Shown: positions 1-61,226, counted from the whole stretch's first letter. The stretch: 63,447 bases of DNA, filler included, from Folioceros fuciformis (GCA_049999805.1; 13 parts of 13 records of this genome joined end to end with filler, not necessarily neighbours in it); one strand, 5' to 3'. Notes: generated by a model not told the origin, from the letters alone. Numbers and translations: made by a program.

Positions 1-151
1 TTTACGGCCGGAAGTGGAATATATTGAGGGCAGCCGTATTTCGTTACCCCCACTTATTCCGCATTCCCGCCGTCGTGAATTGAGTTACGCTCCAGCCTAC
101 TACCGTACTCAGTCTTTCGCATACTCTCCGCCTGCAGAACGGATCGCAGCT

Positions 152-526
152 ATGCTGAGTGTTGGCGGCATTTCTCACTTGGATGGCAGCTTTGTTCCGT
201 TGATCCTGCTGCTGGTACTGGTCGGCGTCGCTGCCTGGGAGCAGAAAAGATTTGCCGAGAGGTGTTCGGTGCTTCAGGCAGCTGGCAGGCCAATTCTTGG
301 CAGGGAGGAACAGCTGCGCAAGAAGATGAGGTTGTTGCATGCTCAGTTGCGGCGGCTCAGAGGATTGTCTCCCACTCCTGATGAGGAGGACTTCCGCAAG
401 CTGTCGCCGTGTCCGGGTCTTGAGATGATTCTTGATGCTGCTGATTGTGATCCAGAGGGTAACCTGGTCTTTAGGTATGCTCCGTTCTGGAGAAGTCCTG
501 AAGCGGAGGCGATTGCGGGATTATAA
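152..526 (+). CDS. Antisense accessory ORF in the 3' region of Copia element A; N-terminal hydrophobic segment, unknown function
   Basis: Frame open 14..526 with first ATG at 152. FVPLILLLVLVGVAAW is followed by basic helical REEQLRKKMRLLHAQLRRLRGL. Ends about 140 bp from the pol stop, on the opposite strand. Confidence 0.5.
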   Translation: MLSVGGISHLDGSFVPLILLLVLVGVAAWEQKRFAERCSVLQAAGRPILGREEQLRKKMRLLHAQLRRLRGLSPTPDEEDFRKLSPCPGLEMILDAADCDPEGNLVFRYAPFWRSPEAEAIAGL

Positions 527-665
527 CTGTTTTGCCTGCGCGCACACAGAAGTAAAGCAAGGTAGCAATTCTTTTGTGCATGCTAATCTTTCCCCCACTG
601 TTTGTGACAAGACTAACCCTTTGGTTGTGCAGGTGCGTGCCTGTGCTGTGCAGGTTTGCAAGGAG

Positions 666-2005
666 TCAGGGACTTGGTTGGATGTCGAGCCCCAGACCCT
701 TGCAGTGCGCAATGTGCCTATCTTTTGGAAGTGCCTTCGTGAGTAGGTCTGCCACGTTCTGTTCTGTGGGCACGTAGACTAGGTCAATTTCTCTGGAGGC
801 CACTGTCTGCCTGATGTAGTGCTGTTTGACAGCTATGTGCCTGGTCCGAGAGTGATGCACAGGATTCCTGGACAAGGCTATGGCTGACTGGTTGTCGCAG
901 TAGACAGTCGTGGCTCCTGGTTGAGGGAAGCCCACAGACGCCATAAACAGGCGGTTGTACACAGTTTCTTGAGCGGCTGCAGTGGCGGCCGTGTATTCTG
1001 CCTCGGTGCTAGAGAGTGCGACCACAGTCTGCTTCTTAGAGGTCCAGCTGACTGCTCCTCCAGAGAGGATTGTGCAGTTGGCGGTAATTGACTGCCTAGA
1101 GTCTTCATCACTTGCCCAATCGGAGTCAGAATAGCAGATAAGCACTGGAAATTTTCCTTGCGATTTGTACTTAAGTCCTAGATGCTGTGTTCCCTTCAGG
1201 TAGCGTAGGACTCTTTTAACTCCTGTCCAGTGTGCTGTGCCAGGGTCAGAGAGGAACCTGGAGAAGACTCGTGCAGCTGGAGCTACATCAGGCCTCGTCC
1301 ATCCACTGATCCAGATAAGGCATCCCGTTAGCATACTGTAGGGTTTCTTTGCCATTTCCAACTTCTCTGCTTCTGTTTTTGGACTCTGGTCTGTGGAGAA
1401 CTTCTCTCCCACAGCCATTGGAGTGATAGCTGGCTTGCAGTCTGTCATGATGAATCTTTCTAGCATTTGTCTCACGTAGTGTGCTTGGTGGCAGAAAATA
1501 CTACTCTTGTCTGGACTGATCACTATCTGTATGCCTAGGAAGAAAGTGAGCTGTCCCAAATCCGTCATGGAAAATTCAGCAGTGAGGATGGACTTTACTT
1601 TCTTCATGATGTCTGGAGAGTTAGCAAATATCAGTGCATCATCGACATACAGTGCCAAGATGGCAAATAATTGCCCTTGCCTCAGGATGTATACATTTGT
1701 GTCAGCATCACTCTGGGTGAATCCAGATTTTACCAGGTAAGCATGGATCTTTTGATACCAGATCCTTGGTGCTTGCTTTAAGCCGTACAGGCTCTTTCTT
1801 AGTTTGCATACCTTATGTGGTTCTGACTTGCTGACATAACCCTCAGGCTGGGTGATATACATCTCCTCGTCTATTTCACCGTGCAGAAAGGCAGTCTTGA
1901 CGTCCATCTGGTGAATATCCAGTTTGCACTCAGCAGCCAAGGCAAAGAGCATTCTTACTGAAGAGGCTCGTACGACAGGTGAGAATGTCTCATGGAAATC
2001 CAGTC
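666..2005 (-). CDS. pol: Copia pol C-terminal part: reverse transcriptase and RNase H
   Basis: Motifs HQMDVKTAFLHG, LYGLKQAPR, LYVDD, YSDSDWA, SSTEAEY, CDNQSAI, ADLLTKAL. Confidence 0.95.
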
Positions 2006-2015
2006 NNNNNNNNNN

Positions 2016-3177
2016 GATTGCTGGAGGAGGCTCCACGACCACGAGTATGAGTGGCCTCCTCGTTGAGCAGGGCGCCAATGATATCTGAGAGTGTGATTTG
2101 AGATTGTGTCCCAGCAGCTACTGCGGCTTGAGCTGTTTGTATATGTTGATTCTGAGTACTCACAAAGCTGTTGTATTTTTCTGGTAGTGACATAAGGAGG
2201 GCCACTGCAGCTTGGAGTTCATCAACAGCAGTGCCAGCCGTGATCAGGTTGGTACGTAGCATTCTGAAACGGCTGACGTGATTCTCAACAGTATCTCCAT
2301 CTCGCATTCTCAGATTGTAGAAGGCACGTGTAGCATGAACGAGTGTTGTAACACTTTTCTTTTGGTGCACTTGGCAAAGGGAATCCCATATTGCCTTCGA
2401 ACTGTCTGCCTCCCGGGCATGAGACATCATGCTTAAGTCCAGAGCAGAATGGATTACGTTTTGAGCACGAAGATCCTTGAGTTTCCAGGCATGCTGGTCT
2501 GCTCGACTTGCAGCAGTTGCACCTCCAGCAGGTGTTGCTGGCATTGGAGTTGCTCCAGTGACATACTCCCAAAGTTCGAGTTCTTGTAAGATGGTGCGTA
2601 CCCGAATCATCCATATGTCAAAGTGTTGGCCACTAAATCTATCTTTGTCTTTGAAGTCATACTTAAAGTTGTTGACTGTGACGTTTGCAGGAGGATTAGT
2701 GCCCATGGCTGTGTATTGACTAAACTGCGTCTGACTTAGATCAAACAACTGATCAAGATGAAGTGAAGAAGAGTGACTAGATGCTGGTGAATTATGTGAG
2801 GACCTTGGTGTGGAGGCAGAGCTACCAGAAGAGGGAGGCTGAGAGAAAATGACACCGGATGATAACGTGCCTAAAGTGCTTACAGAAGCTAATGCTGGAT
2901 CTGGAAGGGTGTACTCGTCTGAGTAGTCGAAGGGATTTTCTGGAAGGACAGGTGTCTGTTCAAACCCAGAAATTGGTGACTCTTCGGATACCACTTCAAA
3001 TCCAGCAGTTGGCAGCGTTTCAGGTGCTTCTTCAGATCCGACTCTTTCTGGTGACGTTCCAGATCTTGGGCTTGAAGGTGACGCTTCAGAGCTCGATCTT
3101 GGACGCGACGTTCCAGGTCTAGCAGGAATCCGGCGCGGTGGCCTCCCGGCTGGGCTTGGATCCCAAGGTTCCGACAT
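2016..3177 (-). CDS. gag: Copia Gag (UBN2-type) with long Ser/Pro-rich N-terminal extension; truncated by gap
   Basis: FDIWMIRVRTILQELELWEYVTG, FYNLRMRDGDTVENHVSRF, LLMSLPEKYNSFV; ATG at 3177. Confidence 0.88.
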
Positions 3178-3769
3178 GTTCAACCACCATCTTTCTTGAT
3201 TTCTCTTCAAGTGTCATCTGTGTCAGGAATGCGGCCACCTCAGAGATGACGTCGTTCTTGGGTCTCCCACCAGGTAGAACGCAGGGCGGCTCTGAGTGGA
3301 AATTTGGCACAGTTTGATGCAGATTGATGAACGCTGTTCTTTCTGGCTCAGTTTCCAGTTGCTGAGCGCTCTGCTGCTTAATCACTCCTTCCAGGTGGGC
3401 TACCTTCGTGAACAATGCATTCAGGTCATGAGACAGATGTTTGGCTCTGCAGTTGATGTTGTCAACTTTGTCACGGAGGCGCTCATCCTGGACTTCGCGC
3501 ATTCGCCGAAAGTCACACAATGTTGCGTGTGTGTGACGACGCTCCTCAGCGAACAGCTGGTGAAGAGTCCTCAATGCCGGCTGTGGCAGGTCAGGTGCGA
3601 CCTCAGGCGCGCTCGCAGATGGATGCAGGTGCGCACTCCTTCCGCAATTGCTGCAAGAGCTCTCAGCTTGGTAAGTGTAGGGTGGTGGACGTGCACTCCG
3701 CGGTGTGGCCTCCGCTATGCTGACTCTGTGTGGATAGAAGGTGCGCCTTGAGCGACCATTGCGAGGCAT
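3119..3769 (-). CDS. Extra sense ORF (ORF0, 216 aa) between PBS and gag
   Basis: Intact ATG-started ORF beginning MPRNGRSRR, with CSNC and heptad-like LSHDLNALFTKVAHLEGVIKQQ; overlaps the gag start. Confidence 0.6.
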   Translation of the reverse strand: MPRNGRSRRTFYPHRVSIAEATPRSARPPPYTYQAESSCSNCGRSAHLHPSASAPEVAPDLPQPALRTLHQLFAEERRHTHATLCDFRRMREVQDERLRDKVDNINCRAKHLSHDLNALFTKVAHLEGVIKQQSAQQLETEPERTAFINLHQTVPNFHSEPPCVLPGGRPKNDVISEVAAFLTQMTLEEKSRKMVVEHVGTLGSKPSREATAPDSC

Positions 3770-4207
3770 TGCTTAGGGTAGCAGTCTAGTCATTTACCTA
3801 TCTAATGCAGGCCAGTGGACTGACTCCTGTGTTCCTACACAGGCTTCTTTCCTACAGCAGATTGAGTCTTACACACATGATGAACTAGATGCAAGACAAG
3901 CTAGGAGTGTTCTTGGTTGAACATGCTGTGCAGGGCAGAAACCAAGGTGACAGGCTAGCGAATTAGAGGTGCAAGTTCAACAGGGTGGCTCAATGCTTCT
4001 TGGCGCCAGGTGCGCAAGTGCTAAGCATAGTAGTGATTGACAACCTCCGCCAGGAAGGTTTCCGCCATCACGCCAAACCGGGTGAGTGAGAGTCTGAGTG
4101 CATGAATTGCAGCACGAAAATTTTCATGTGTCAGAGTTCTAATGCAGGACTATGATTTACAGATCTCACGCCGGCTAGGAGGCGACATGGCGGAATCTGT
4201 CAACCAA

Positions 4208-4219
4208 GCTCTGATACCA
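4208..4219 (-). promoter_or_regulatory. Primer binding site (tRNA-iMet)
   Basis: Reverse complement reads TGGTATCAGAGC. Confidence 0.92.
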
Positions 4220-4245
4220 TAGCGTAAATAGGATCGATAGCGTAG

Positions 4246-4345: not shown

Positions 4346-4687
4346 CATTGAAGTCGTAAACCAAGAATCAATACATTTGATATGGAATGAATGAGAACAA
4401 CTTGGTAGTCTTCTAACTTCTTGGTTTTCCTCAAATGGTTCTAGACATATACAACATAATTCATTGTTTGCATCCTCTTCTTGCTTGTATAATATGTGTG
4501 GAATAATATGATCTAGTCTAGATATGTCGAGACAACGCTCCACCAATTTAACTATTGGTGCTCGTGGCCGAGCCCGTGCTTGTGCTTGTCTACCTTGTAC
4601 TCTTCGGAAGACTCTTTGGATGAATGATCGTACTCTTTGTCGCGTTCCAACTTGTGGTGCCGGTCCTCGTTGTTGTGAAGATGCCAT
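4346..4687 (-). CDS. RING-H2 protein, second partial copy cut by the contig end
   Basis: Same translation as 7125..7526 up to FTTSM. Confidence 0.75.
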
Positions 4688-5032
4688 GATAATTAGTGAA
4701 TCAATATGATGTATCCACAAAAATACTACAATTGTGTATATGTGGTATGACCTTGTAACAAATAAAAATGATGCGGATGTCGCCGCAAAGTTGTAATCTT
4801 AGAGTAAGATATAAGTTGATGACGGGCGCGGAAAATTCAAACCCGCCTATTGATATTCTTGCGTATTTATTTTATTCAGATGCAGAAATTATTATTGTAT
4901 TAAAATGCTTTCACTTCTTAGAGTGAAATAATGATGGCAATAATAGCTTTATAGAGAGGCCGCACTAGGAATCCACAACTTTAATAACGATGAAATGATA
5001 ATGGCAACAAAGGCTTCATGCAAAGGCAACGT

Positions 5033-5160
5033 TAGAGCACAAGATATAACAAAGCACCACCGTAGAAGGCAACGCTCTATAGAGCACAAGATGTAACAAA
5101 GCACTACCGTAGAAGGCAATGCTCTATAGAGCACAAGATATAACAAAGCACCACCGTAGT
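5033..5160. repeat. About 47-bp tandem repeat, about 3 copies
   Basis: tagagcacaagatataacaaagcaccaccgtagaaggcaa recurs. Confidence 0.8.
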
Positions 5161-7124
5161 AAGCAAGAGAGACGGAGAGAGGGAGAGAGGGCGAGAGAGA
5201 GCGAGAGCGCCAAGACGTATAGAAATGTTGTGTGCCACAAGTGTGTGAGAGGCCCTTTATATTGCTTGAGAAAACTAAACCCTAATTTCATAGAGAGCAT
5301 ATATATTTGCGATTAGTTATTGAACCCACTCATCCTAGCCCTAGACTCTACTTATTGAATGGGTGACGTAAATAAATAGGTTATGACACTAAATATTTAT
5401 GATGCTAATTTCTTGGTCTTCTTACCCATGTGCCATCCTGGGGATGTAATATGTCATAACATTGAACTACGGTGCTAACTATTTTTGGTCCCCATACACG
5501 TATGCCATCGTACGGATCATATCCTAAAATGAAAGCTACGTATAGAATATGCTTGGAAGAACCTAGATGTTGATGCTTAGAACTCCACGCATGCTGCACC
5601 GTTGCGTACGTCTTGCAATATTTAATGGTGCTGCATGCATGATCCATTACCAAATTCATATTCCTTGGCAACGGGAAATAATGCAAAGTTTCCAATGCGG
5701 GTCATGGCCGATCCCATGTCTACTCCCGGACCGATTGATGTAAGACTTGCCAAGTTCAAAAATCTTGGTAGACTAAGTTCACCTTGCTTGCAAGGGAAGG
5801 AGATGAATTTTTTGTTTTTGGCACCTTGAGGTTGCGAGAATGTAATGGCCAAGAACGTGATTGCGAAGATGAATATGTGCGCTTTCAATGAGGCGAGGGA
5901 AGAGCGACGAATTGAAGGCGAGGCTCAAATGTTTGGAAGATTTGCACAAGTCCACAAACTATGCACGGGTGTGGCGGGAAAGCTCAAGGTTTTGACTTCT
6001 AACCTAGACGTTGGGTTCTTCCTATCCAAATTTCTCGCCTTGAACGGTGTGTTTGTTGAAAACCCTTGGTATAGCTTGTTGCGGAGCACTCATTATGGTT
6101 GCAGCCACCACTCACTCGCCACAACCTTTCTATAGCAATCTCGGCGCAACACTTTGTTGGCCATCATCCAAAGCCCTCACGACGAGCTTGCTTCCAATTC
6201 CCACGCTTGGCACTAATGTCCATCGGTCAACTTGTTAGCTATTATTCACGAAAAGCGTTTGATGCTTCTAGAGTCCTTCAAAGTGTCACGGACATAGGTC
6301 ACGCCATTCCTCTTGGAAAATGATTTGTGTAATGGTGAAATATTAGAGTTCTATGAAATATTAGAGTTCTATACACGTCTACGTCTCTCTCTCTCTCTCT
6401 CTCTCTTTTTTGAAAAAAAATAAAAATCAATAGTTTTATGTATAATAAAAGGTTATATCATACATTAATATTTAGTTAAGATCATTAAATATATATATAA
6501 TGAATATGAATACTTATTTCTACCATATTAGTACATCAAAAATTATGAAAGAAATCCATGTGCACGATGGAATAAAAGTGAACACCCCCGCAGAGGAACC
6601 ACCGAAAACCATTTAGGCGAGAACTAAAACAGAACCCGTATGTTCCTCATGCGCGCACGTGCTTCCACAACCCTAGCTAGCTTCCATATTTTTCATTCCT
6701 AGTAGGTGCTCGTGCGTCTTAGGGGCTTCCGCTTCCATGGCTTTTCCTTTTTTGGTCTTCTTGAGTAGTCCAGCTGCCAAAATTCAACTCTTGCATAAGA
6801 ATTTCACAAGTGTAAAATCAATTCAAAGATGTTTTAAACTCTGCAAGCACATACAAGAAAGAACAAGCTTGCTCCAAAGTGATGGCAATACGCACCCAAG
6901 CGTTGCACCTTACACCCACAAAGACCTTGGTCGAAGCTCAATGGCAATAATCTTGAAGTGATTGACAACCTGCATTGTCGAGTTTATGTACAACGCGTTA
7001 TGAGGCAGTGTTCTTCTCTAGTTGCAATAAAGCATGCATTTAGCACTAGATTCTCTCTTACGCAATTGTCAGCCATGAATTATCTTTTGTTTGTAGAACA
7101 CATAGATGATCTATTACGTCTTAG

Positions 7125-7526
7125 TTATGCTTTGTACACAAATGCCCTTTCTATATCGAGAGCACTTCTATCAAGAGGACAAGTCATTGAAGTCGTAAAC
7201 CAAGAATCAATACATTTGATATGGAATGAATGAGAACAACTTGGTAGTCTTCTAACTTCTTGGTTTTCCTCAAATGGTTCTAGACATATACAACATAATT
7301 CATTGTTTGCATCCTCTTCTTGCTTGTATAATATGTGTGGAATAATATGATCTAGTCTAGATATGTCGAGACAACGCTCCACCAATTTAACTATTGGTGC
7401 TCGTGGCCGAGCCCGTGCTTGTGCTTGTCTACCTTGTACTCTTCGGAAGACTCTTTGGATGAATGATCGTACTCTTTGTCGCGTTCCAACTTGTGGTGCC
7501 GGTCCTCGTTGTTGTGAAGATGCCAT
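7125..7526 (-). CDS. Small intronless RING-H2 finger protein (putative E3 ubiquitin ligase), 133 aa
   Basis: CCICLEPFEENQEVRRLPSCSHSFHIKCIDSWFTTSMTCPLDR matches RING-H2 spacing. Confidence 0.85.
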   Translation of the reverse strand: MASSQQRGPAPQVGTRQRVRSFIQRVFRRVQGRQAQARARPRAPIVKLVERCLDISRLDHIIPHILYKQEEDANNELCCICLEPFEENQEVRRLPSCSHSFHIKCIDSWFTTSMTCPLDRSALDIERAFVYKA

Positions 7527-7640
7527 GATAATTAGTGAATNNNNNNNNNNNNNNNNNNNNNNNNNNNNNNNNNNNNNNNNNNNNTTAATTAATTAANNNN
7601 NNNNNNNNNNNNNNNNNNNNNNNNNNNNNNNNNNNNNNNN

Positions 7641-10925: not shown

Positions 10926-11270
10926 TCAAATCACTCTGCAGCAGCGCACACAGACATCTTCGGCGCGCCTGACTCTGGCTATAGCGACCTCTGCCGACCA
11001 CCTGCCTTCCCACCCAATGAATTTGATCAGCTGCTCCACCCTTAACGGCGTCCAGCTGAGATACCCTCGATTCCTCTCCTCAATCGGCGGAGCTGCTCTC
11101 TTTGCCTGTGTTTTCTTCTCCTTTGGTTGCCGTTCACAGCTGTGGGTATCCTTCCCATATCTGTGCCCGCTACGTGTCGTCATGCCCCACAGGTGAATCA
11201 CTATGGTAAGGGCAGCTGCCGCAATGAGAAGAGCTGCTAAAGCAAGGGTTTCCGTCGTGGATTTGACCAT
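10926..11270 (-). CDS. Antisense accessory ORF (114 aa) between pol stop and PPT; N-terminal TM/signal anchor
   Basis: ATG-started; LALAALLIAAAALTIVIHLW followed by a basic region. Confidence 0.55.
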   Translation of the reverse strand: MVKSTTETLALAALLIAAAALTIVIHLWGMTTRSGHRYGKDTHSCERQPKEKKTQAKRAAPPIEERNRGYLSWTPLRVEQLIKFIGWEGRWSAEVAIARVRRAEDVCVRCCRVI

Positions 11271-11392
11271 CTTTGGAGTCTGGAGCTCGACAGTACTGGG
11301 CGATGGCGTTTCCGCTTCCTCACAGAACGGAACGTGGTGCTGAGCTTTCCTCTGACGCCGTAATAAGTTGACGCCATTAGGTTAAGAGGGAG

Positions 11393-11566
11393 TGTCGAGG
11401 GGGGGTAACCCTATACGACCCAACTTAAGTAAATAATAGGGTTATGCATAAAATAATACATAAAGACAATTTTGTTTATTATTCATAATCAATTACATTT
11501 GGTAGTTTGCACGCACAAGGGCTCTGCGCTCCGCGGCTCTCACCTTTTGCGACTCCCAAATTGACA
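11393..11566 (+). repeat. 3' LTR of element C (174 bp), preceded by PPT AAGAGGGAG
   Basis: TGTC...GACA inverted termini; the right end falls exactly where the neighbouring RNase H breaks after CDNQSAIALS. Confidence 0.85.
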
Positions 11567-12221
11567 CGAGAAAGAGCAATTGCTGATTGATTGTCGCAGA
11601 ACAGTCGAGTTGGACTAGCTGGGAGTTTGCCTAAACCTTTGAGGAAAGTGCGAATCCATAAGATCTCCCGAGGTGCTTGTGCCATAGCACCATACTCTGC
11701 TTCGGTGTTGGAAAGGCATATGGTGGGCATATTCTTGCTTGACCATGACACCACAAAACTACCGAGGAAACAGCAATAGGCTGCAACACTTTTGCGAATA
11801 TCGGGGTCTCTTGCCCAATCTGCATCACAGAACGCAAAAAGCCCAAGTCCATTTGGCTGCCTAGTATACCTGAGACCTCTGATAGGTGTGCCCTTCAAGT
11901 AACGAAATATTCTCTTCACGGCTATCCAGTGTTCCATTCCTGGGTTCTCAAGGAATTGGCTAACATTACTGACAACCCTACTAATATCTAATCTTGTCCA
12001 CCCAGCTAGATAAAGCAAGCAACCCACAGCTGGCCTATATGGCTTCTTTGCCATTTTTGCCTTCTCAGGCAAAGTCTAGGCGATTGCTCCTTGGACAGCT
12101 TTTCTCCCACTGCCATTGGAGTTGCCACTAGCTTTGCATCTTCCATTTGAAAACGTTGTAGCAGTTGTTTGACAAAGTGTTCTTGGTGGATGTTGATTGT
12201 ATGGTCTGCATGATTAAAATG
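11567..12221 (-). pseudogene. Copia RT/RNase H fragment interrupted by element C
   Basis: PYRPAVGCLLYLA, KRIFRYLKGT, CDADWA, NTEAEY, CDNQSAI. Confidence 0.9.
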
Positions 12222-13214
12222 NNNNNNNNNNNNNNNNNNNNNNNNNNNNNNNNNNNNNNNNNNNNTTAATTAATTAANNNNNNNNNNNNNNNNNNNNNNN
12301 NNNNNNNNNNNNNNNNNNNNNGTGATGTTTATGGTGAAGCATACTGGTAACAGCTGATCGCGATGGTCCCGCAGCTGATTCAGATGATGGGCATCAAACC
12401 TTAGCACAACGCAGTTCGTTCCTGTAACATGTACGACTCCTCTACAATGTGCATAGCAATCTGGCTGCACAAGCTCCAGCTGTGCATAACGAAACGGGCC
12501 TTGCTTCCAATTCAACGAAAGGGGCAAGCTGGCCCCGTGGACGGTGGGGTGTACTCTCGTTGCTTGATGCCCTCACAAGGCGAAGGACCTGTCCCCGTTG
12601 GAGTCAGACCGACGGTGATTAAAGAGGTGAATGCTGGTGGTCTGTGACAGGTGCGTGTCTTTCTCGCTCTCTCAGGGCATCTCATTTTCCCGTTGGCCAC
12701 TGGCCTCTGGCCGTATCGGGAGGAAGCCATGAAGGAACCTGTTGATACCCTGTGACCCAATGCCAGCCCTGGATTGATGATGTCATCGACGGACGGGAAG
12801 TGGTACAGGCTCCGTTAATTCGCTGATAAAAGACGAAAGCAACGGCGGCGCCCACATTGCAGGGTCCCGGAGCTGGGTCCCAGTCCGTCAGGGGCTTTCA
12901 CACAGTTTCTTGCCGGCCGTTGCGGGACCGCGACCGCAGAGGAGCGAGCCGCGTGGGGCCTTGGGCCCGGGGCCATGGCGTCCATCTGTTCCGGCCCGGA
13001 CGCCTCCCGGAGCGGAGGACCGGGCTGTACACTCCCCTTGCGCCTCGGGTTTTCGCCTTGGTTCCAGCTTCCTCCTTCTCTCGCACCGGGCGAGCCATGG
13101 CGGATGAGGTGAGGTTGTGGAGGAGGCCAGAGAGGCGGCGGAGCATGCGGATCAGGAGCGGAAGTGGAAGAGGAAGGTGGGCGAGGAGGATGAGGAGGTG
13201 GAGGCCCACAGCCC

Positions 13215-15755
13215 CTTCCTCGTTAGCTACGGCCAACCCTGCGTGCTCCAAGTCGTGGGCCTTATCGTTGACGAAGAACTTCGTTGTCAGTGATAAAGCC
13301 TACCACTCGGAGCACGCAGGGAACGCCCGGATTCATGGACGCTGGGAACGCTGAAGGTCTCAAGCTCTCATTGTTGGGAGCTCATGGACTTTGACCACTT
13401 CCTCGACGAGTTTGGGAGAATGCCGTCGAGAGAAAACTTGAGCGTCGTCACCAACTTTCCAGCGCTAGCCAGCGTGGTTCCCAGGAAGGCAAGCCTCCAG
13501 CTCTGCTCTATTCGGTTGCAAGTTTCGCAAGTTTCTCGATGCGCGCTTTTGGCTTTTTCTTGGAGTTTCTGTGGGTGCTCTGGATGCCGCTCTCTGTTCT
13601 GCTCTTTCGGAGTATCATTCGTGTGCTCTGCGTGCTTGCACGAGATGGACATTTTCGGAGTTCCGTTTGTGTGGTACTGACTCGCGTGCGTTTGAGATCG
13701 ACTGTTTCGGAGTTCATGTGCGTGTGCGTGCGCGCGCGCGCACAAGCCTGTGACTTACCTGTCCAAGGCATGAAATCGATGCTAGCGATGTGCTTGCAGG
13801 CGCGTTGTCCTGCCCTGCTGAAAGAGCTTGCTTAACTGCAAGCCTTATGCGCGCCTGCACATGTGAATACGTTTTCTGTGCTGGGCAAAACCTGTTGCAG
13901 CCCAGCTGGAGCTCCAGTCATGTCTTATGTGCTTGTGACGTATGTGATTGAACCTGTACATGTGTGTGACGTTGCTCGCGCGTGCACATGAAAGTACCTC
14001 CATCCTGCTTCGCTCCAAGCCCTTCCAATGACCGTAACAAGCTTGTTACTTCGAGCATGGAGCTTGGGCTCAACTTGAGGCTTGGATCTGGCCCATAGCA
14101 AGGTCGAGCGGGAGTCAGTCATCCGATACCTTTACTTGGCGAGAACAGTGCAGCTCGATCTTTTGCTTCTCGCCTTCCTCTGTTGGGTGGATGTCTTTGC
14201 ACGCGTGCAGGTGTCGATGTCCGGCCTGCCCCCAATCGATTGCGAAGTTTGTATTCTTGTACGTCTTGGAAATTTTCCCCGGTTGTGCAACACCAGGTTC
14301 AGGATTTTACTTCATTCTGTGAGTTCTTTTGTGGACTGTTGCTTTTGCTCGTTTTTGCCCTGCCCAGGTTGTGTGCTCAACGTCTCTTCTCTCGGTTGCT
14401 CTTCATGTGCTTGTCACTGTCACTGCTTATGTCGCCAATCTGTTTTGTTACAGGTGAGGCTTTGTTAGAGGCAGAAGGACTTGTCCTGTGCCTTTGTAAG
14501 GTATGGTTCGTAGCTGCCCATTTCTTTGGCTGTACACCAGGTTCTCTGCCTTATTGCAGCATTCTCTGTCTTCGCAGCCTGACTTCCTGCGATTTGCGTT
14601 TGGTGTAGCGTTTGCTGGCTTTGTTGTAGTCAAGATGGTCAGGGTAAGTGTGTTTCTTCCGAGCGTTTGTGTGAGTTGGTGTCTAACTTGACGTGGTAGC
14701 TAAGAGCCTTCCCTTGCTACATTTATTTGCAGGTTTGGCGGTTACCTCGAGAAGGGGAATGGGTACACCATGGTGTTCATGAACTGTCTGACAAACAATC
14801 AACAGTCCTCCTTCGCTACGGCAAACTCTGCGTGCTCCAAGTTGTGGGCTTTATCGTTGACGAAGAACTTCGTTGTCAATGATAAAGCCTACCACTCGGA
14901 GCACGCAGGGAACGCCAGGATTCATGGACGCTGGGAACGCTGAAGGACTCAAGGTCTCAACATTGGGAACTCATGGACTTTGACCACTTCCCCGACAAGT
15001 TGGGGAGGATGCCCTTGGGTTGCAATCGCTCGCTGTTTAAAAGTTTCGCAAGTTCTCGGTGCACGCTTTTGCCTGTTTCTTGGAGTTTGCTGTGGGTGCT
15101 CTGGATGCCGCTCTCTGCTCTGCTCCTTCAGAGCAGGATGTGTGTGTTCTGCGTGCTTTGAAGAGATGACATTTTGGGAGTTTCGTTTGTGTGGTGCTGA
15201 CTCGCGTGCGTTTGAAATCGACTGTTTCGGGAGTTCATGTGTGTGTGTGTGTGTGCGTGCTCGCGCGCGCTTAAGCTTATGACCCATCTGTCCAAGGCAT
15301 GAGATTGATGCTAGTGCTTCCAGGCGCCTTGCCCTGCTGAAAGAGCTGGCTTAGCTGCGAGCCTTATGCGCGCCTGTACATGTGAATCCGTTTTCTGTGT
15401 TGGGGAAAACTTGTTGCAGCCCAGCTGGACCTCCAGTCATGGCTAATGTGCTTGTGACGTATGTGATTGAACCTGTACATGTGTGTGGCGTTGCTCGCGC
15501 GTGCACTTGAATGTACCTCCATCCTGCTTTGGTCCAAGACCTTCCAATGACCAGAACAAGCTTGTCACTTTGAGAGCTTCTCTGGCTGAGCCCTTGGATC
15601 TGGCGGATGGCAAGGTCGGAGAGAGTCGGCGTCAGTCAGCCGATATCTTTACTTGGCAAGAATAGTGCAGCTCGAGCTTTTGCTCCTCACCTTTCTCTGT
15701 TTGACCCCGTGGATGTGTTTGCAGGCGTGCAGGTGTCTCTCCGGCCTGCCCCTAA
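13215..15755. repeat. Two diverged direct copies of an about 1-kb unit (~13215..14240 and ~14805..15755)
   Basis: Collinear shared blocks, e.g. gacgaagaacttcgttgtca, catggactttgaccacttcc, gtgacgtatgtgattgaacctgtacatg. Confidence 0.8.
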
Positions 15756-17782
15756 AGGATTGCAACCACAGCAGCTGCGATCTTGGATGAGGTTCACAGC
15801 TCCTTTTGGCTGAGCCCAGATTTTAGTTCAGGCAGGGGAGATCGATGCTGGCATGTGATGTGTGAAACGCTGATGCTGATGTCAAGTCATACTTGCTTTC
15901 TTAATTACGTTTGGACATCCAGACAATGACTTCGTGCTTGCCGAAGATGGACATGGAGGTGGTCGGTGAGGGCATCCTCGTGCAACCCGATTACTCTCTG
16001 GTTCGCGGTCCAAGAACTCGATGCCGACGCCAGCATCGAGTGGCACATCTGCTTGCTCGGCAAGGTATGTCTAGACGGGCTCGAGTTCCTTTTGTGTGTA
16101 TCCTTTCTCCAATACCTACTGTAGTGACGCTCTACATGCAATTGCAGCTAGCCAACTTGTGCCGCCATGATCAACTCAGGCATCTCCACANNNNNNNNNN
16201 NNNNNNNNNNNNNNNNNNNNNNNNNNNNNNNNNNTTAATTAATTAANNNNNNNNNNNNNNNNNNNNNNNNNNNNNNNNNNNNNNNNNNNNCCGTGTCAAC
16301 ACAGACACTGACAAAAGTGTCACGGAATGCCAAGTGAAACTGCAGAGGGGTATGGCAAGTATCTAGGCATTAATAACCACGTGTAAGCCTCTTGGCCATT
16401 CTGCCATAAACTTGACGGTCGACTCAAAGTTCGCCAACTTCACCATACACTTGCAATGCATAGCCGCCAGGCAACCGTCGTGGAATGAAGGGCTGCTTTC
16501 CTCCCACTTGTTGGGGAACTATAAATCCCTCACTTTTGCCAAAATTCAAGTAGGGGCAGGGAGGACCTTGGTCAACATGCCTACAACTAAACACACTAAG
16601 ATGGAGCCGACGTCACAAAAAGTCAGGTCACATGGGCAAAATGTTGCAAGACTCTAGGAGCGGATAACCAAGATATATCTCTCGTATACATGGCAAAACC
16701 ATTGCCAACGTTATCCCCGAAGTTGACACGAATCAAGAGCGCAGGCTATGTGGAGACTGCTTCACAGCACCTGCTTTGTGTGCATGTTGTAAAACACATG
16801 GCCTGCCCCCTTTAGTTATCACATGGTGCAAAGGAGAGATTGGAGAGTCTAATTATACCAGTCTCCAAGATTTATGAGACATGTATATGCTGCCTAAGAC
16901 ATGAATATGGGGAATGGAAGCTTCATCTCGTATAGCCAACATCTTCTTAGATAGCGGACATATCACAATTGATGTGGCTGTTAGGATGGGTTTTTTGAGT
17001 AATATAGGCTAGGATGTGAGTCTCATTGTTTTAGCTCTGTGTATCTCAATTTTGAGGGGGAATTATAAAGGCATCGTTGTCCTACAGATGGTGAGTACTT
17101 GCATTACCTAGCAGTCGAGTGTATCTCAATGCCAAGGGGGATTTATAACGTCATGGCCATTCTACAAATGGTGAGTCCCTGCATTACAGGTAGTCGTGCA
17201 TCCCTCTACTGAATATCCCCTAAGGGATTTGGAATGACACTCTTGCAAACAAATTGCCAAGTAGGGTTCGTTACAAACCTCATGAATACAAAAAGCACGC
17301 AAGCTTGCCCTCAAAGATACCCCATGGGTTGGGGTATATGGCCACTCCTTGTACACATGTACTCGTTCATATATGCCTTTGTAGAATATATGCAAGTAAA
17401 AAGGATTGTTTAATATTCTTACCTCTATTATTCATACCAAGAAAAAAAAAAACAAAGAAACTTGTATACAATTGACTTTTGAACTATATCCTTCGAGATT
17501 ATGCCAAATGCAATGACTATATATGTGATGTTGCAATATATTAAATATTACAATAAGATTTAGGGGCATACATTTGATACCTCTACATACCAAATCTTTA
17601 TTTGAGATTTTGTATTGTAGAAGGCTATAAATGTGATACTCCTCCTCATCCAATATTTATTCTATTCTAATTAGCTTCGTCCTAGTTGTAACCCAACAGA
17701 GGTTACTCCAGCAATTGTGATGGCGGCAGCACCTCTAGAAGACACCCATGTTTCCAAAGGCCAGCCATGCGAGGGTTCCAAC

Positions 17783-17955
17783 GCCTATGCTAGTTCGAAC
17801 TCTAGAATTCCCAAGCGGTGTGAGATCAAGGAGTTGAGTGCCAATGCTAGTTCCAACTCTAGAATTCCCAAGCAGTGTGAGATCAAGGAGTCGAGTGCCA
17901 ATGCTAGTTCCAACTCTAGAATTCCCAAGAGGTGTGAGATAAAGGAGTGGAGTAC
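17783..17955. repeat. 57-bp tandem repeat, 3 copies
   Basis: atgctagtt at 17787, 17844 and 17901. Confidence 0.88.
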
Positions 17956-22629: not shown

Positions 22630-22844
22630 NNNNNNNNNNNNNNNNNNNNNNNNNNNNNNNNNNNNNNNNNNNNTTAATTAATTAANNNNNNNNNNNNNNN
22701 NNNNNNNNNNNNNNNNNNNNNNNNNNNNNTTTTCAAGGCTGCAATTAATTCACGAAAATTCTGATGTGAGAGTCTTCTAATGCAGACTTGAGTTTTGCAA
22801 AATGTGCAGGTGTTAGAAGGCACAGGCTCCATGCTCTAATACCA

Positions 22845-23111
22845 TTAAGCAAGGGGTAGGATCGAAGGTAGTTAGGCAAGAAAGATTATTAAAATTGTGT
22901 GACCGGTGACTGCCTTTGGGCAGGTATGTGTGTGAGGACTGTAGGGTTGCGACCGTTCATGAAAGAACGTGTCGCTTAGAACGGTCACGATGGTATGAAA
23001 CGTTGTGACGTTTCATACCTTGAATATTTTGCCTATTTAAATTCTAAACTAAGGCTGACTATTTAAATATACTTTAAAATACTCTTAAATGTTTTTATAT
23101 ATATTTCTATA
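22845..23111 (-). repeat. LTR of element G (about 266 bp, non-TG/CA ends)
   Basis: Bounded by PPT AAGTGGGAG and PBS TGGTATTAGAGC; sense strand reads TATAGAAA...GCTTAA. Confidence 0.8.
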
Positions 23112-23314
23112 CTCCCACTTAGACAGACTTAGTAGATTTCGTGCATTTGAATCTTCAATCTTCCGTGGATTGATGAGAATTGCTCCCACTGCTTGTTGTG
23201 TTCCCTTGTTGATGTCCTCCATTCTTTGCCTTGATGATTCCAATGAAGATTATAATCCTTGAAGAGCTACACAAGTCTTGCATGCATTTTTGCTGTCTAT
23301 GGGAGTTACAAGAC

Positions 23315-35603: not shown

Positions 35604-35812
35604 TGTTAGCGGGTTAAGCTGTTATTCGCTTAGCCTAGTTATTATTTTCGTACCTTTTCATTTAGGGTTTATTTGATATTTAATGAACACACGTGAGACC
35701 TTTTTTGTATTCCATTCATTTTATTCATTCTTTTGAATATACAAGTGATATATATGTCTAAGCCTTCAGGCTCTAGTCAAACAGTCCAATGCTTATACAT
35801 CTATAATTTACA
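35604..35812 (+). repeat. 3' LTR of element H (about 209 bp)
   Basis: Follows PPT AAGAGGGAG; TGT...ACA ends; the right end truncates the neighbouring ORF. Confidence 0.75.
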
Positions 35813-36801
35813 CTGGTTAGCGAGCTCCTGTTCTACCTCCTGTTCCTGTATAGCCCGCTCCTCTGTCTGACCTTCGGTTCGCTCCAGGGCTGTCTTCGGT
35901 GTCTCCGACCTACTCCCTCCTCTCGTGCTCTGCCCGCTGACCCATCTCCTCTTGGCAAGGGTCTTCCTCTGAGCTGCTGTCCTCTTCTTAGGCCTGACGG
36001 GAACCTCCCCCTCCGAGCTATCCCCACTCCCCGACACCCAACTGCTGGAGTCAGCCTTCACTGGCTCAGCAGGCTTCCATTTTACATCCCTGATTGGCCT
36101 CCACATGTGCAGTAAAGCCAACACCTCCAGTTCCGACACCAGGTTAGCATAACTATAAATATGCAATAGAAACGGGGAAATCATCGAGGGCTGAGGAGAG
36201 GGCAGGGTCAGATTCTGCCTCTCCTCGTCCATCCTTGCATACAGAATTTTTTCCCAATCAATCCTGGTCTCCTTCACTACCTCATGCACAAACAGGAGCA
36301 TCTGGTCAGACAGATAATCCTGTTTGCGAACCTAGAGAAAACTAAGAAACCACCTAGCCAGACCCATCAGCTGCAGGCTCACCATGTCGCGAACCAACCA
36401 TCTGTTAGCCTCCTTCTTCGTGCCTAGTTTGAGTAGTCCTTTAGCGTCTCCTGTACCTCCCCATTTCCTCAGGGACTCCAGCACCAATCCTCCCTCTTCT
36501 TGCTGGTCACGGCCATACACCCTCCTCACTAGCCCTAGGTTCCACCCCTGCGGTCTACCTCTGATCCCTTTCTCACGGACAAGTTCCCTCAACCTCAGGG
36601 TGCACTCCCTAACCAACTGTGGCGTTGCATAGTTCCACTTCTGAGTCATGAAACCCAGACCCAATTCATCCACCAGCCCTCCTGCTCTGACCCTCCAATG
36701 CTCCATGTGGGGCCACAGGAGTAGGTCGATTCAGGGAACATTAGGTTCCCCTCCTGCTCGGGTACTGTCACTCCAGGCAGCAGTTTAGGGTGCGACCTCA
36801 T
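35813..36801 (-). pseudogene. Frameshifted transposon-associated ORF of unknown function inside a probable LTR element starting at 36981
   Basis: Consecutive coding-like segments ELGLGFMTQKWNY..IRGRPQGWN and IDWEKIL..ISPFLLHIYSYANL, then an acidic/basic tail; TGTAGAGG at 36981. Confidence 0.55.
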
Positions 36802-53261: not shown

Positions 53262-53273
53262 GTTCTGATACCA
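53262..53273 (-). promoter_or_regulatory. PBS (tRNA-iMet, one mismatch), with LTR starting at 53274 (far end uncertain, about 53510-53535)
   Basis: Reverse complement TGGTATCAGAAC abutting TGATGAAA. Confidence 0.75.
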
Positions 53274-59086: not shown

Positions 59087-61226
59087 CAAGTCGTTATTTT
59101 GTAAGGCTCCTATAGCAAGGAGTTCCCTTTGCGGGGTTTCAATGATGCAGTGACCATCCCCGAAGCATACGTAACAGCCTGATTCATCTACCTTTCTAAC
59201 TGAGAAGAGGCTCTTTGTAAGCCCTGGTACATGAAGAACGCCTGATATGTGCAAGGTAGATGTTGTTTTAAGGTTAATTTTGAGGGACCCATGACCCTGT
59301 ATTTTGTGTCTGGAGTCATCTCCTAGACTAACATACTGAGGTGGTTGTGTAGGGTTGATCTCTGTGAAGTATTCTAGGTTTCGTGTCATGTGTTGGGAGG
59401 CACCTGAGTCAATGTACCATGTGTGATGTCCCTGAGCTGCAAGGCAGGATGCCACATAAGCTGTTGGATTAGAGGAACTTGGTTGATCTAGCTAATCTTG
59501 GGATGATTGAGGTGTGTGTGTTAAATATGCTCTTGTATGTCTTTCCATTGTGAGGGCGAGTTGTCCTATCTGCTCACGTCGACGTTGTGGGTTGTTTGTA
59601 GCTTGTCGTTTCCGACATTCCTCATAGGTATGTCTTGTAATTTTACAGTACCCGCATACGGGTTTCCAAGGGGGATTGTAGTAACCTCTTCCTCTACTAT
59701 GGTAAGTACCCTGATAATTGCCCGGTCCACAGGGATGTGGTTGTCCTCGCATGCCACCGCCCCTACCCCTGAATCTTTTGCCTGTAAAATAGGCGTTGGA
59801 GGAAGATTCTCCAGCATAAAAAGTGTTGGATAATTTGCGTCTTGCTTCTTCTATTAGCATAGAGCTAATAACTTTGTTGACTGTCAGGGGAGTTACTCCT
59901 TGAAGGGACTACACAACAGTAACCTAGGACTTGGGCAGCGTGGAAAGGAGTAGGGCTGCAGAAAGATCTTTGGTAAGGGCGAATCCAATGGCCTTGAATT
60001 TTGTTGACCAGCTACGGAAGTGCATAGTATGTTGGTCGACGAAATCTCCCTCTTGCGTGCGCAGGCCGAAGAAGTGTGTACGGTGTGCATAATATTATAT
60101 CGTGCAATTGCTGCTAGGCAGCTGCTGCAGTGTTTGTGTTTTTGATTTGTTGGACATTCCCATGACGCATAGCCTGGATGATCACGTTGTGTGCTTGTTG
60201 ATTGGCGTCTTCCCAGTCCTCCTTTTCTTTTGCTGTTCCGTTGCTTGGGTAGGCTATGGGAACAGGGGGGTTGCCTATGCCTTCTACGTAGCCCCATAAT
60301 TTTCTCTCCTTTAGGATATTTTTATCCTAAATTTCCATGTTGGAAAGTTTTGCTACTGACCATCGAACTTGTCTTCTTTGGACAGGCTGGTGTGGGAGGA
60401 CATGGTGTTGGTGGCGTTCTAAACGCTGAAGACAATGTTTCTAATTATACTAGATGCATCTAACTGCATGGTGAGGACAACTCTGTAAGTTTGTTGAGGG
60501 AATTTTATGTGGGAATGTGATTCGTCTAGACTGTTGATTTTCTGTATTATTGAGGTTTGTGTTTCTTGAATTTCCTTCGCAGATGGGAGCATGAAGAGGT
60601 TGTGCTGTCTACATAGAGAACTGAGGTGAGAGATTACTTTCTCCTTGACATCTGTGAGTGAGATGGGAGCGATGATGTCTAGACATGTGGTAAATTCCCT
60701 TTTCATTGTTGATGGAAGAGGTATTCTACTTGGATGTATGAGAAGTCATAATCATTATGTTCTAGGTGACCTCTGAGGAGTAGTTCTTTGCCAATTAAAA
60801 AGTAGGACACCGCAGGTCCTGAACCAGCCATAATGACAAAGGTTTTCCTGTGCCTCTTTGAGGTATCGAATCTCTCTGTTGGACCTTTGCCATTGAAGGT
60901 ATTTGGCTTTTTTTTTCTGCCTTCTTTGCAAGGCGCCTTAGCCTCTGATCACCAGGCACTAGGTCGCAATTGGCGGGGCATTATGGTGTGGCTGGTATGG
61001 ATGAGATCAATGACCAGAGGGAAGGGATCATGCTCTGATACCATGTAATTATCAGGATTAGATTTGCATTGAAACGTGATCGTTAAGTACAAAGGTGAAA
61101 CGCTGCGAGCGTACTCGTAACTGTTCGCTCAAGTTCGACTTTTGGTATCTAGTCTGTAGACCGAAACGTGCCCTAACCTAGGCAGTAGATATGCATTAAT
61201 AATAGGCCCACCTTTGATACCCTACA
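59087..61226 (-). mobile_element. Ty1/Copia element M 5' part: LTR 61044..61226, PBS 61032..61043, degenerate ORF0, gag and protease; interrupted by the Gypsy element
   Basis: TGTA...TACA LTR, TGGTATCAGAGC, CGYCKITRHTYEEC, WYIDSGASQHMT, VLHVPGLTKSLFSV. Confidence 0.88.

Follow-up and report, generated by a model that had tools for sequence, protein, structure and literature searches.

The window analysed here, a stretch of 63,447 nt (filler included) from Folioceros fuciformis, consists of 13 separate contigs joined by spacers of N44, 12 nt and N44, and the other contigs within it are therefore unrelated loci. Contig A (positions 1-4245) was found to be a Ty1/copia element on the minus strand, in the order primer binding site (PBS), 440-nt leader, an extra sense ORF (ORF0), extended gag, 10-N gap, reverse transcriptase-RNase H, and an antisense frame open at its 5' end. 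Its features are as follows.

4220-4245, minus strand: putative last 26 nt of the 5' LTR, truncated by the contig end, adjoining the PBS on its 5' side
4208-4219, minus strand: PBS TGGTATCAGAGC, exact 12-nt match
4021-4182, minus strand: leader stretch conserved with family G (tblastx and blastn, A against G)
4146-4137, minus strand: leader 10-mer TGCATTAGAA, inside the conserved stretch
3769-3119, minus strand: ORF0, 216 aa, ATG to TAG, between PBS and gag
3050-3120: 27-nt tandem repeat, 2.6 copies, 70% matches, at the junction of ORF0 stop and gag start
2707-3177, minus strand: 157-aa Ser/Pro-rich extension in frame with gag, its frame open from 3213
2016-2706, minus strand: canonical gag core up to the gap, Met at 2706 in the context GCCATGG
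2006-2015: 10-N assembly gap at the expected place of protease and integrase
666-2005, minus strand: reverse transcriptase (RVT_2, E 1.5e-59, 666-2003) and RNase H part of pol, stop at 666-668
586-597, minus strand: candidate polypurine tract GTGGGGGAAAGA
2-526, plus strand: open frame of 174 codons antisense to pol, beyond the pol stop at 666, 5'-open at the contig end

Element A carries a Copia-type Gag (Retrotran_gag_2 at residues 194-379 of its gag ORF; E 4.8e-32, 111 bits against a cut-off of 27) and a Copia-type reverse transcriptase (RVT_2 in 666-2003). Its pol is 47-55% identical to the pol of contigs C, G and H (47% to C, 55% to G), which makes G its closest relative. In contrast to its ORF0, which an earlier note on this DNA had described as intact, the element is not intact: the gap replaces protease and integrase, the 5' LTR is present with 26 nt only, and the 3' LTR is undelimited. 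In contig C, an rve domain (residues 48-144) precedes RVT_2 (477-721), and the corresponding stretch of A is the gap, at both edges of which run contigs continue with unlike sequence. The polypurine tract is offered as a candidate read from the sequence, because the LTR start cannot be fixed.

At the 5' end, the 26-nt LTR piece has no second copy within the window, and its TCGATCCTA also stands at the corresponding place in G. Initiator tRNA-Met presumably pairs with the PBS through its 3' end; with at most one mismatch, the 12-mer has five sites in the window, against 0.41 expected. The leader conserved between A and G (tblastx 46% identity over 54 codons; blastn 83% over 35 nt) includes TGCATTAGAA, with five matches in the window against 0.24 expected, which correspond to four distinct sites because the G site is counted twice in a self-overlapping contig. 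At three of these (A, G and L), the 10-mer lies 46-62 nt 3' of the PBS. As far as the REXdb survey describes primer sites, the 3' end of tRNA-Met primes most Copia elements, and the Bryco, Osser, Bianca and TAR lineages have half-tRNA-Met or half-tRNA-Ile sites or are self-priming (Neumann et al. 2019, PMC6317226); on its PBS, A was rejected as a member of these lineages.

The assembly of contig A is consensus-like and represents a young, high-copy plant Ty1/copia family. Over stretches of 450-780 nt, the run contigs and the window disagree at 1-3 letters, with depths of 130-220: X1 and X2 contigs are near-identical to 3455-4237 (3 other letters, depth 152/218), a run contig over 2603-3138 has 1 other letter (depth 134), and the pol 3' end (457-905) has a depth of 157, like the ORF0 region. 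Among the 40 variant sites listed (986 in total), one falls in ORF0. ORF0 is present at family-level read depth and belongs to the element. We also considered that A might be a repeat-graph path joining pieces of subfamilies, or might contain a 1-nt error, with the real ORF0 and gag forming one frame or not being adjacent. The run data are small (~290-320 million letters) and contigs B, G and J overlap themselves end to end. Two run contigs both stop at 3138, within the ORF0/gag overlap, and the junction could therefore be a subfamily mosaic. A joint 2745->3741 bypasses ORF0 and the gag extension at similar depth (132/186), and loose ends at 3729 belong to relatives with the same leader and a different downstream sequence. 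However, depth is even (134-157 in X1) over ORF0, gag and the pol end, none of the indels listed lies between 3119 and 3213, and the shorter side of the joint has just 31 letters at 80% likeness. We regard such an assembly artefact as highly improbable.

The 216-aa sense ORF that the earlier note had placed between PBS (4219..4208) and gag in this element was borne out. Its length is beyond chance, as only 2 of 1000 dinucleotide-shuffled versions of the region from PBS to gag reached 216 codons. The protein is laid out as an Arg/Gly/Pro-rich disordered head (1-62), a helix (63-138) with a leucine zipper (98-130), and a low-confidence tail. A single-sequence AlphaFold2 model predicts the 76-residue helix at 63-138, with 60 residues at a pLDDT of at least 90 and block means of 91-95 over residues 71-130. 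Within it, residues 98-130 form a five-heptad zipper with L/I/V/A in 10 of 10 consecutive a/d core positions. The heptad score was reached by 0 of 500 shuffles, compared with 140 to 500 of 500 for six control frames on the wrong strand or in the wrong frame. ORF0 thus has the pattern of a coiled coil of the leucine-zipper type, and its product is predicted to self-associate. Relatives were looked for widely. No Pfam family was detected, none of the 417 candidates of a word-indexed protein search scored, phmmer gave 0 matches among 1.84 billion representatives, and neither an Atlas search nor either of two metagenome scans returned a relative; with tblastn (E<10), ORF0 and the antisense ORF of A gave only noise in the other contigs. 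The one recognisable likeness to related families or species is a start motif of 9-12 residues shared by A and G.

This motif, MPR.GR.R.T.Y, has three matches in a six-frame translation of the 63 kb, all of them in sense orientation and within the 5' regions of A and G. The two copies in G are the following.

29050-29092, minus strand: first start-motif copy of G, MISIMPRGRGRKTY, heading an 81-aa ORF just past the conserved leader
27553-27888, minus strand: 112-codon frame in frame with the gag start of G, opening with PRGRGRGTY

The canonical gag start of A aligns with the gag start of G, and the frame upstream of this Met is open in both elements, for 157 codons (from the ATG at 3177) in A and for 112 codons in G. 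The two motif copies of G use different codons at 7 of 8 shared residues (the exception is the codon of the final Tyr; at the ninth residue, one copy has K and the other G), and the frames that bear them align with z=4.3 (0/200 shuffles); the value for ORF0 of A against the Gag extension of G is z=2.1 (7/200 shuffles). Against a link between ORF0 and Gag speak the low z value of this second alignment, the shortness and low complexity of the motif, and its place in A, ~250 nt further from the leader than in G. In its layout of motif, disordered linker and helix, ORF0 mirrors the in-frame Gag extension of G. The motif recurs only in the sister family G, where one copy is in frame with gag. ORF0 therefore resembles a Gag N-terminal module that became detached or was duplicated, and the match in both motif and layout points to a gag offshoot and not to an acquired gene. 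Judged by these sequence comparisons, ORF0 is probably an offshoot of gag's own N-terminal extension.

A second element in the window, on contig L, carries a comparable frame.

52207-52857, minus strand: stand-alone 216-aa ORF, 405 nt behind a PBS-like site at 53273..53262 (1 mismatch)

The length of this frame, an open stretch of 254 codons in DNA of 36% GC, was reached in 0 of 1000 shuffles, and its heptad score in 1 of 500. It ends in a clean stop, has no overlapping frame, and the gag of L lies beyond the contig end. No Pfam family was found in it, its AlphaFold2 model was poor (mean pLDDT 38.5), and it has no sequence similarity to ORF0 of A. The data support the view that A and L each carry an extra sense ORF, alike in size and position. 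As both ORFs end in clean stops, they fit a separate gene equally well as a Gag module. ORF0-like frames had been claimed for G, H, L and M, and of these the frame in L stood up. In G and H, the frames of the 5' region are at chance level (362 and 99 of 1000 shuffles), and so is the 95-aa frame of M, which is not the longest in its region. Among the ORFs of A, L, G, M and H, no similarity was found beyond the start motif of A and G.

Several of these observations would also fit extra ORFs that are non-functional, that is, fast-evolving untranslated DNA that happens to be open in a recently amplified master copy and would merely be preserved in the consensus-like contig. Expanded leaders, tandem repeats, and captured or duplicated scraps could supply such DNA at either end of the element. 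The family is indeed young and high-copy, ORF0 is without homologue in any database searched, and the 5' frames of G and H are no longer than expected by chance, with a GC-rich stretch in G where many frames of both strands are open. Moreover, a 151-codon shadow frame lies opposite ORF0, and eight ATG triplets (counted by eye) lie between PBS and ORF0 start, so that simple scanning would reach ORF0 poorly. A composition-corrected codon-usage score is uninformative, ranking ORF0 33rd of 110 while failing to separate known coding from wrong frames. An intact ORF in a young, high-copy family is in itself no proof of selection. Against this reading, a five-heptad zipper in a confidently predicted 76-residue helix is unexpected of DNA that was never translated, as is the long open frame of L at its low GC content, and the start motif was kept between the G copies with changed codons. 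We consider non-functional ORFs somewhat unlikely, and ORF0 appears to be genuine coding sequence of the element, or to have been so until very recently, and would presumably be translated. Our preferred reading, held tentatively, is that this real or recently real coding sequence is related to the Gag N-terminal extension of the clade, in a young, high-copy Ty1/copia family.

Under this preferred reading, the 5' end of gag would have grown a long extra coding region in the family of A, with ORF0 possibly arising by duplication of the Gag N-terminal module. ORF0 would then be the first long ORF on the genomic RNA, and its product might serve as a self-associating, RNA-binding helper of particle assembly. 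It could act as a free protein or be fused to Gag. The frame of the gag extension is +1 relative to ORF0 and overlaps it by 59 nt from the ATG, or by 95 nt from the frame opening, and a +1 shift at the ORF0 stop (UGC UAG A -> AGA in the gag frame) could join the two. The overlap coincides with the 27-nt tandem repeat, and no known +1 frameshift heptamer was seen. A possible analogue in function is LINE-1 ORF1p, which also comes from the first ORF of its element and has both a self-associating coiled coil and a basic part that binds nucleic acid. LINE-1 is a non-LTR element, and its ORF1p has RRM and C-terminal domains that ORF0 is without. No fold or sequence match between ORF0 and ORF1p was found, and the comparison concerns only how the two proteins may work.

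Beyond pol, the earlier note had described an antisense ORF in A and antisense ORFs with hydrophobic leaders in C and H. In A, the open frame exists (2..526) and runs off the contig end. Its hydrophobic stretch covers residues 60-78 (nt 179-235). The corresponding frames of C and H are given below.

10929-11381, minus strand: 151-codon frame of C antisense to pol, with a hydrophobic stretch, 185 nt past the pol stop
34940-35365, minus strand: 141-aa ORF of H antisense to pol, with a hydrophobic N-terminus, 230 nt past the pol stop

The hydrophobic stretches after pol in C and H were confirmed. No Pfam family was found in either frame, and no similarity among the antisense frames of A, C and H. 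The longest ORF beyond the pol of C (11479-12054, minus strand, 191 aa) was rejected as an accessory gene, since it is a reversed fragment of another Copia pol (in-frame tblastn, 43% identity to residues 709-903 of C pol, E 2.7e-41).

These frames bear on the possibility, raised in the earlier note, of a Copia lineage with two accessory genes, a 5' sense ORF0 and a 3' antisense gene for a small membrane-anchored protein. The genes would be independent, separately expressed, and too fast-evolving to retain sequence similarity between families. At the 5' side, ORF0 and the L ORF agree in length, distance from the PBS (405-439 nt), clean stops and heptads. At the 3' side, three of the four elements whose pol 3' end lies in the window (A, C and H) have an antisense frame of 147-174 codons, with its end 140-230 nt past the pol stop. 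All three are nominally beyond chance: the 174-codon open frame of A was reached in 6 of 1000 shuffles (25 of 1000 for its 124-codon ATG ORF), and those of C and H in 16 and 7 of 1000. Of 102 ORFs of 100-200 codons, only five have a 19-residue hydropathy mean of 2.1 or more, and these frames are three of the five. A subfamily variant, P0001 (100 aa), is 90% identical over residues 90-174 of the A frame, with both indels being whole codons, and a 3-nt insertion occurs at 513-514 in run X2. Heterogeneous orphan ORFs are, moreover, usual in elements that have extra ORFs, as far as the REXdb survey's account goes (PMC6317226).

Other observations speak against two such genes. The frames and the underlying DNA are dissimilar. 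This applies also to C and H, which are 62% identical in their pol proteins and share a single 19-nt blastn match (E 8e-4) in their post-pol regions. The fourth element, G, is the nearest to A and has no antisense frame of at least 90 codons. P0001 starts at the position-90 match, past the hydrophobic stretch, and extends 13 residues beyond the frame of A, so that neither end is kept, a result made ambiguous by the start that the gene caller chose. In A, the open frame is cut by the contig end and may be within the 3' LTR. The sense strand of this DNA likewise has an open frame, of 158 codons, and the whole-codon indels therefore do not show which strand, if either, is read. In addition, the antisense frames had been chosen in the earlier note after being seen. 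Taken together, the data point only weakly to a membrane gene read antisense to pol and to its presence in several elements; a conserved gene is a less likely explanation of these frames than quickly changing by-products of the 3' region. With no sequence similarity between the ORFs of different elements, the claim of a Copia lineage with two accessory genes is unsupported, and two independent genes seem to us clearly unlikely.

Comparison with known elements places these results in context. The literature summary of the earlier note was broadly right. The REXdb survey sorts extra ORFs into 5'F, 5'R, 3'F and 3'R according to their place and strand; in its description, the proteins vary greatly, for the most part contain no known domain, and have a questionable function (Neumann et al. 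2019, PMC6317226). It counts extra ORFs of at least 250 codons in 582 Ty1/copia elements of 45 groups, so that, by its tally, extra ORFs in Copia are not new as such and ORFs of 216 aa fell below its threshold (PMC6317226). In common bean, 63 of 65 Copia families have no extra ORF, and the other two have sense env-like ORFs (PMC4093653). Within its account of extra ORFs, the survey names only the 3' sense ORF of SIRE as typical of a Copia lineage (PMC6317226). Like ORF0, the env-like ORF of SIRE/Sirevirus is an extra, fast-evolving ORF in Copia without conserved domain; it differs in being 3' of pol, whereas the extra sense ORF of A is 5' of gag. No SIRE-type sense ORF was found beyond the pol of A, where the longest sense ATG ORF has 98 aa and lies inside the 158-codon frame. 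In position, ORF0 resembles rice Retrosat2 ORF0 (Ty3/gypsy), an orphan sense ORF between 5' LTR and gag-pol. Ogre ORF1, also of Ty3/gypsy, is another such ORF. Both belong to the other superfamily, however, and have no sequence relation to ORF0 of A (0 matches).

For the antisense frames, the counterparts are the ORFs between pol and 3' LTR of the Ty3/gypsy elements Grande (gene23, maize), RIRE2 (rice), Retand (Silene) and pvRetro13 (bean), which have the same position and orientation and, in the account given there, no similarity to known proteins (PMC7264820). Those ORFs are similar between species and occur in most copies, whereas here no similarity was seen even between C and H. A plant Ty1/copia group with two element-specific proteins beside Gag-Pol, namely a 5' RG-rich, zipper-bearing ORF0 from a duplicated Gag N-terminus and a small single-pass membrane protein encoded antisense beyond pol, is in our view very unlikely. 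Within such a plan, fast evolution would have kept only position, size and physical features. If true, the two-protein plan would parallel the antisense proteins of complex retroviruses.

The features of contig A (1-4245), which carries a minus-strand Ty1/copia element, are as follows.

5' of the PBS, minus strand: LTR end, 26 nt
4219..4208, minus strand: PBS, exact over 12 nt
between PBS and ORF0, minus strand: leader of 440 nt, its first ~160 nt conserved with contig G, whose family is the sister of A
3769..3119, minus strand: ORF0, 216 aa
3213 (opening) and 3177 (ATG), minus strand: gag frame, +1 relative to ORF0 and overlapping it
3050-3120: 27-nt tandem repeat at the ORF0/gag junction
2006-2015: 10-N gap at the expected place of protease and integrase
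ending at stop 666, minus strand: RVT_2 and RNase H region
contig end to 526, plus strand: antisense open frame of 174 codons, beyond pol

The coordinates first noted for this element proved correct, but it could not be called intact, being gapped and without both LTRs, and its antisense frame is open at the contig end. Residues 1-157 of the Gag ORF are Ser/Pro-rich and lie ahead of a Met at 2706 in the context GCCATGG; from this Met onward, A can be aligned both to Retrotran_gag_2 and to the start of gag in G. By eye, we counted eight ATG triplets in the leader. Its conserved part, 3' of the PBS (A 4021-4182 and G 29089-29250, minus strand), was 46% identical across 54 codons of a single frame, which has one internal stop in A and closes at a stop common to both families; it may act in cis as a conserved RNA element or represent a short upstream ORF. 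The leader 10-mer TGCATTAGAA also recurs in contig L. Its occurrence in contig H (37586) was dismissed as a leader motif, since by eye it sits in an apparent reversed gag of another Copia. Comparison of LTRs, between the A 3' end and G and among the 5' and 3' flanks of H, C and A, gave nothing usable.

How A should be read depends on the nature of the contigs. The spacer of 44 N, TTAATTAATTAA and 44 N separates 13 contigs, A to M, some of which carry genes (an LRR receptor kinase on J, a RING-H2 protein on B and an ACT-domain protein on F) that mark the source genome as plant-like. In three contigs, the two ends overlap each other with 100% identity:

B, 4346-7540: more than 300 nt repeated, spacing 2839
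G, 22730-29322: 163 nt including the PBS, spacing 6430
J, 39815-50468: more than 300 nt, spacing 6714

Such self-overlapping contigs are the product expected from a repeat graph of low-coverage reads, and we therefore treated A as a consensus-like route through a family of high copy number rather than as a single genomic copy. G resembles a circularly collapsed LTR element that retains one LTR, ~470 nt long at most, while the self-overlaps of the gene contigs B and J may reflect tandem copies or graph cycles. In two DNA runs of one organism (X1 and X2, ~290-320 million letters each), 90% of the sampled words of 2016-4245 were present; because both runs may be the source of the window, they do not count as independent support. 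A further run, X4, presumed to be RNA, yielded no matching piece.

Several observations indicate that ORF0 of A is a real feature. When the PBS-to-gag region was shuffled 1000 times by dinucleotide, an ATG ORF of 216 codons arose just twice. The single-sequence AlphaFold2 model consists of one long helix (residues 63-138; 60 residues with pLDDT of at least 90) flanked by a head and tail of low confidence. The predicted helix has a predicted five-heptad leucine zipper, in that 10 of 10 consecutive a/d positions within residues 98-130 are L, I, V or A; this heptad score was matched by 0 of 500 shuffles, as compared with 140-500 of 500 for six wrong-strand or wrong-frame control ORFs. Complex prediction with two copies of residues 60-142 scored 0.09 against a mark of 0.32. 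Codon-usage scores failed to separate known coding from wrong-strand frames and were dropped. Judged on its sequence, ORF0 is very probably coding, now or until recently.

The run data also place ORF0 within the family of A. X1/X2 contigs that are 1-3 letters off the window span 3455-4237 and 2603-3138 (the stretch 3139-3454 was absent among the long run pieces listed), and X1 depth over these pieces was 134-152, versus 157 over the pol stop; since this equals the depth of the pol-stop piece, ORF0 travels with the family of A. In a run from a second organism (X3), a 382-nt contig at a depth of only 6 matched 3327-3708 within ORF0 with one other letter, and other parts of the ORF0 region were covered at depth 70-1356 by contigs at least 80% alike. 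These matches reflect either related elements in that organism or carry-over between the samples of one study.

The earlier note had claimed ORF0-like frames in G, H, L and M, and of these only the one in L held up well. L has a PBS-like site (53273..53262, one mismatch, CA directly before) with TGCATTAGAA 46 nt downstream, and an ATG 405 nt after the PBS heads a 216-aa ORF in DNA of 36% GC (0 of 1000 shuffles). Its heptad score was matched by 1 of 500 shuffles, and the heptads, placed by eye at roughly residues 95-146, agree with low-confidence helices at 94-123 and 129-147; the AlphaFold2 model (mean pLDDT 38.5) was too poor for comparison with ORF0. The ORF ends at a clean stop without an overlapping frame, 60 nt before the contig end. 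The 5' region frames of G and H, on the other hand, were at chance level (362 and 99 of 1000 shuffles, respectively), and gag-pol is interrupted by stops and frameshifts in both, which are decayed copies. In M, a 134-aa frame that is maybe decayed gag exceeds the 95-aa frame in length. A tblastn search with ORF0 against the other contigs returned noise only. L is the sole solid parallel to ORF0, and it is a parallel without sequence similarity.

Searches beyond the window were likewise negative. Pfam assigned ORF0 to no family, none of 417 candidates passed in a word-indexed protein search, phmmer gave 0 hits among 1.84 billion representatives of any length, an Atlas search returned no match, and neither ORF0 nor the gag core found a relative in metagenome loci and contigs. 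These results argue that ORF0 is not a recognisable captured host gene. A PDB fold search with the ORF0 model returned five matches, all with E>1, and a single helix carries little information in such a search. For longer relatives of the A Gag ORF, 0 of 8000 scored candidates passed, in a search that was probably crowded by low-complexity words.

Our best lead to the origin of ORF0 came from the comparison with G, which forms the closest pair in the window with A (55% identity over RT-RNase H). The loose pattern of the ORF0 start, PR.GR.R..T.Y, matched at three places when the whole window was translated in six frames, each of them on the sense strand of a 5' region:

site 1, A: start of ORF0
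site 2, G: ATG of an 81-aa ORF directly after the conserved leader
site 3, G: opening of a 112-codon frame that continues into the gag start

The two copies in G use different codons at 7 of 8 shared residues, which speaks for the peptide rather than the DNA being kept. Alignment of the two motif-bearing frames of G gave z=4.3 (0 of 200 shuffles), and that of ORF0 with the Gag extension of G only z=2.1 (7 of 200 shuffles). In the extension, the motif is followed by an acidic/Ser-rich linker and then by a Gln/Ala/Leu-rich stretch ahead of gag, an order shared with ORF0. From these sequence comparisons, the reading we prefer for ORF0 is that of a detached or duplicated N-terminal module of an expanded Gag. 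The letters at the ORF0 stop, UGC UAG A, continue as AGA in the gag frame, and a +1 shift at this stop would fuse ORF0 to Gag. A second element in L (54609-54968, plus strand; gag start), head to head with the L ORF, has a Pro/Gly-rich in-frame extension with NPLP-like repeats ahead of gag and is another Copia with an N-terminal Gag extension.

We also considered the antisense frames beyond pol, for which hydrophobic ORFs in C and H had been put forward as counterparts of the one in A. The frame of A ends 140 nt beyond the pol stop, and the other two are:

10929-11381, antisense to C pol: C frame of 151 codons, ending 185 nt beyond the pol stop and adjoining 11479-12054
antisense in H: ORF of 141 aa, ending 230 nt beyond the H pol stop

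Open-frame length was reached in 6 (A), 16 (C) and 7 (H) of 1000 shuffles (nominal values), and of the 102 window ORFs that are 100-200 codons long, only five have a best 19-residue hydropathy mean of at least 2.1, the three frames among them. The recurrence of position and physical character is real. The proteins and DNA share nothing, not even between C and H with their 62% pol identity, and this lack of similarity counts against a conserved gene. A fourth element whose pol 3' end is present, G, lacks an antisense frame. The 191-aa ATG ORF of C (11479-12054) was discarded as an accessory gene, being a reversed Copia pol fragment (E 2.7e-41). Because the LTR start could not be fixed, the antisense frames may be located in U3. 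The DNA of the A frame is also open on the sense strand (158 codons). The only relative of the A frame in the databases is P0001, a 100-aa protein of another assembly, with 90% identity to residues 90-174 and two whole-codon indels; it begins after the hydrophobic stretch and reaches its stop 13 residues later. By eye, H ~36980-37680 (minus strand) looks like a canonical Copia gag, short-headed and interrupted by stops, and the frames 36730..36335 and 36331..35804, neither with a Pfam family, follow it on the same strand; lying after this reversed gag, they are not antisense ORFs of element H.

The analysis did not bear out a Copia lineage with two accessory genes. The literature summary that accompanied this proposal is backed by two papers: antisense ORFs downstream of pol are known from Ty3/gypsy families (PMC7264820), and in common bean 63 of 65 Copia families have a polyprotein ORF only, the other two having sense env-like ORFs (PMC4093653). 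In the REXdb survey, 582 Copia elements of 45 groups have extra ORFs of 250 codons or more, which were sorted by side (5' or 3') and by strand (forward or reverse) and proved highly heterogeneous; the SIRE 3' forward ORF is the sole lineage-typical one named there, and ORFs belonging to the polyprotein in some copies were left out (PMC6317226). Copia groups with 5' sense ORFs may already figure in its per-lineage eORF tables. When open-access full texts were searched for 5' ORFs of Copia elements, Retrosat2 ORF0, a Gypsy case, was all that came up, which is not proof of absence. We rate A as a fresh variant within the known class of extra-ORF LTR retrotransposons. The extra ORFs of plant LTR retrotransposons are recognised but unexplained, and have been described almost wholly in Ty3/gypsy lineages and SIRE; survey thresholds of 250 codons overlook ORFs of the present class. 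If ORF0 is traceable to the Gag N-terminus, it would provide a concrete origin story for extra ORFs, in which a disordered Gag extension is duplicated and becomes detached, and a tractable protein (basic head plus leucine zipper) for probing roles in particle assembly or RNA handling. If the ORFs are neutral, they would serve as a caution that consensus-like low-coverage contigs keep ORFs intact without selection.

Some further repeats were seen in the window. M (57072-63447) holds the 5' part of a Copia on the minus strand, with an exact PBS at 61043..61032, abutting a plus-strand chromovirus piece (Chromo domain 58356-58715; weak rve match 57429-58019, crossing a 100-N gap). Its Copia domains are:

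59495-59908, minus strand: zinc-knuckle frame
58973-59491, minus strand: Pol_BBD

Upstream of the M PBS, two LTR-like stretches (61636-61777 and 62765-62906) are 88% identical and 1129 nt apart, each with a 23-nt tandem array (61714-61798 and 62843-63019), possibly a tandem LTR. D (12322-16190) contains tandem repeats with a unit of ~1520 nt and 84-94% identity, in GC-rich DNA with many open frames. Shorter tandem arrays were found in three other contigs:

17772-17956, E: 57 nt
38436-38629, I: 97 nt
51774-51991, K: 73 nt
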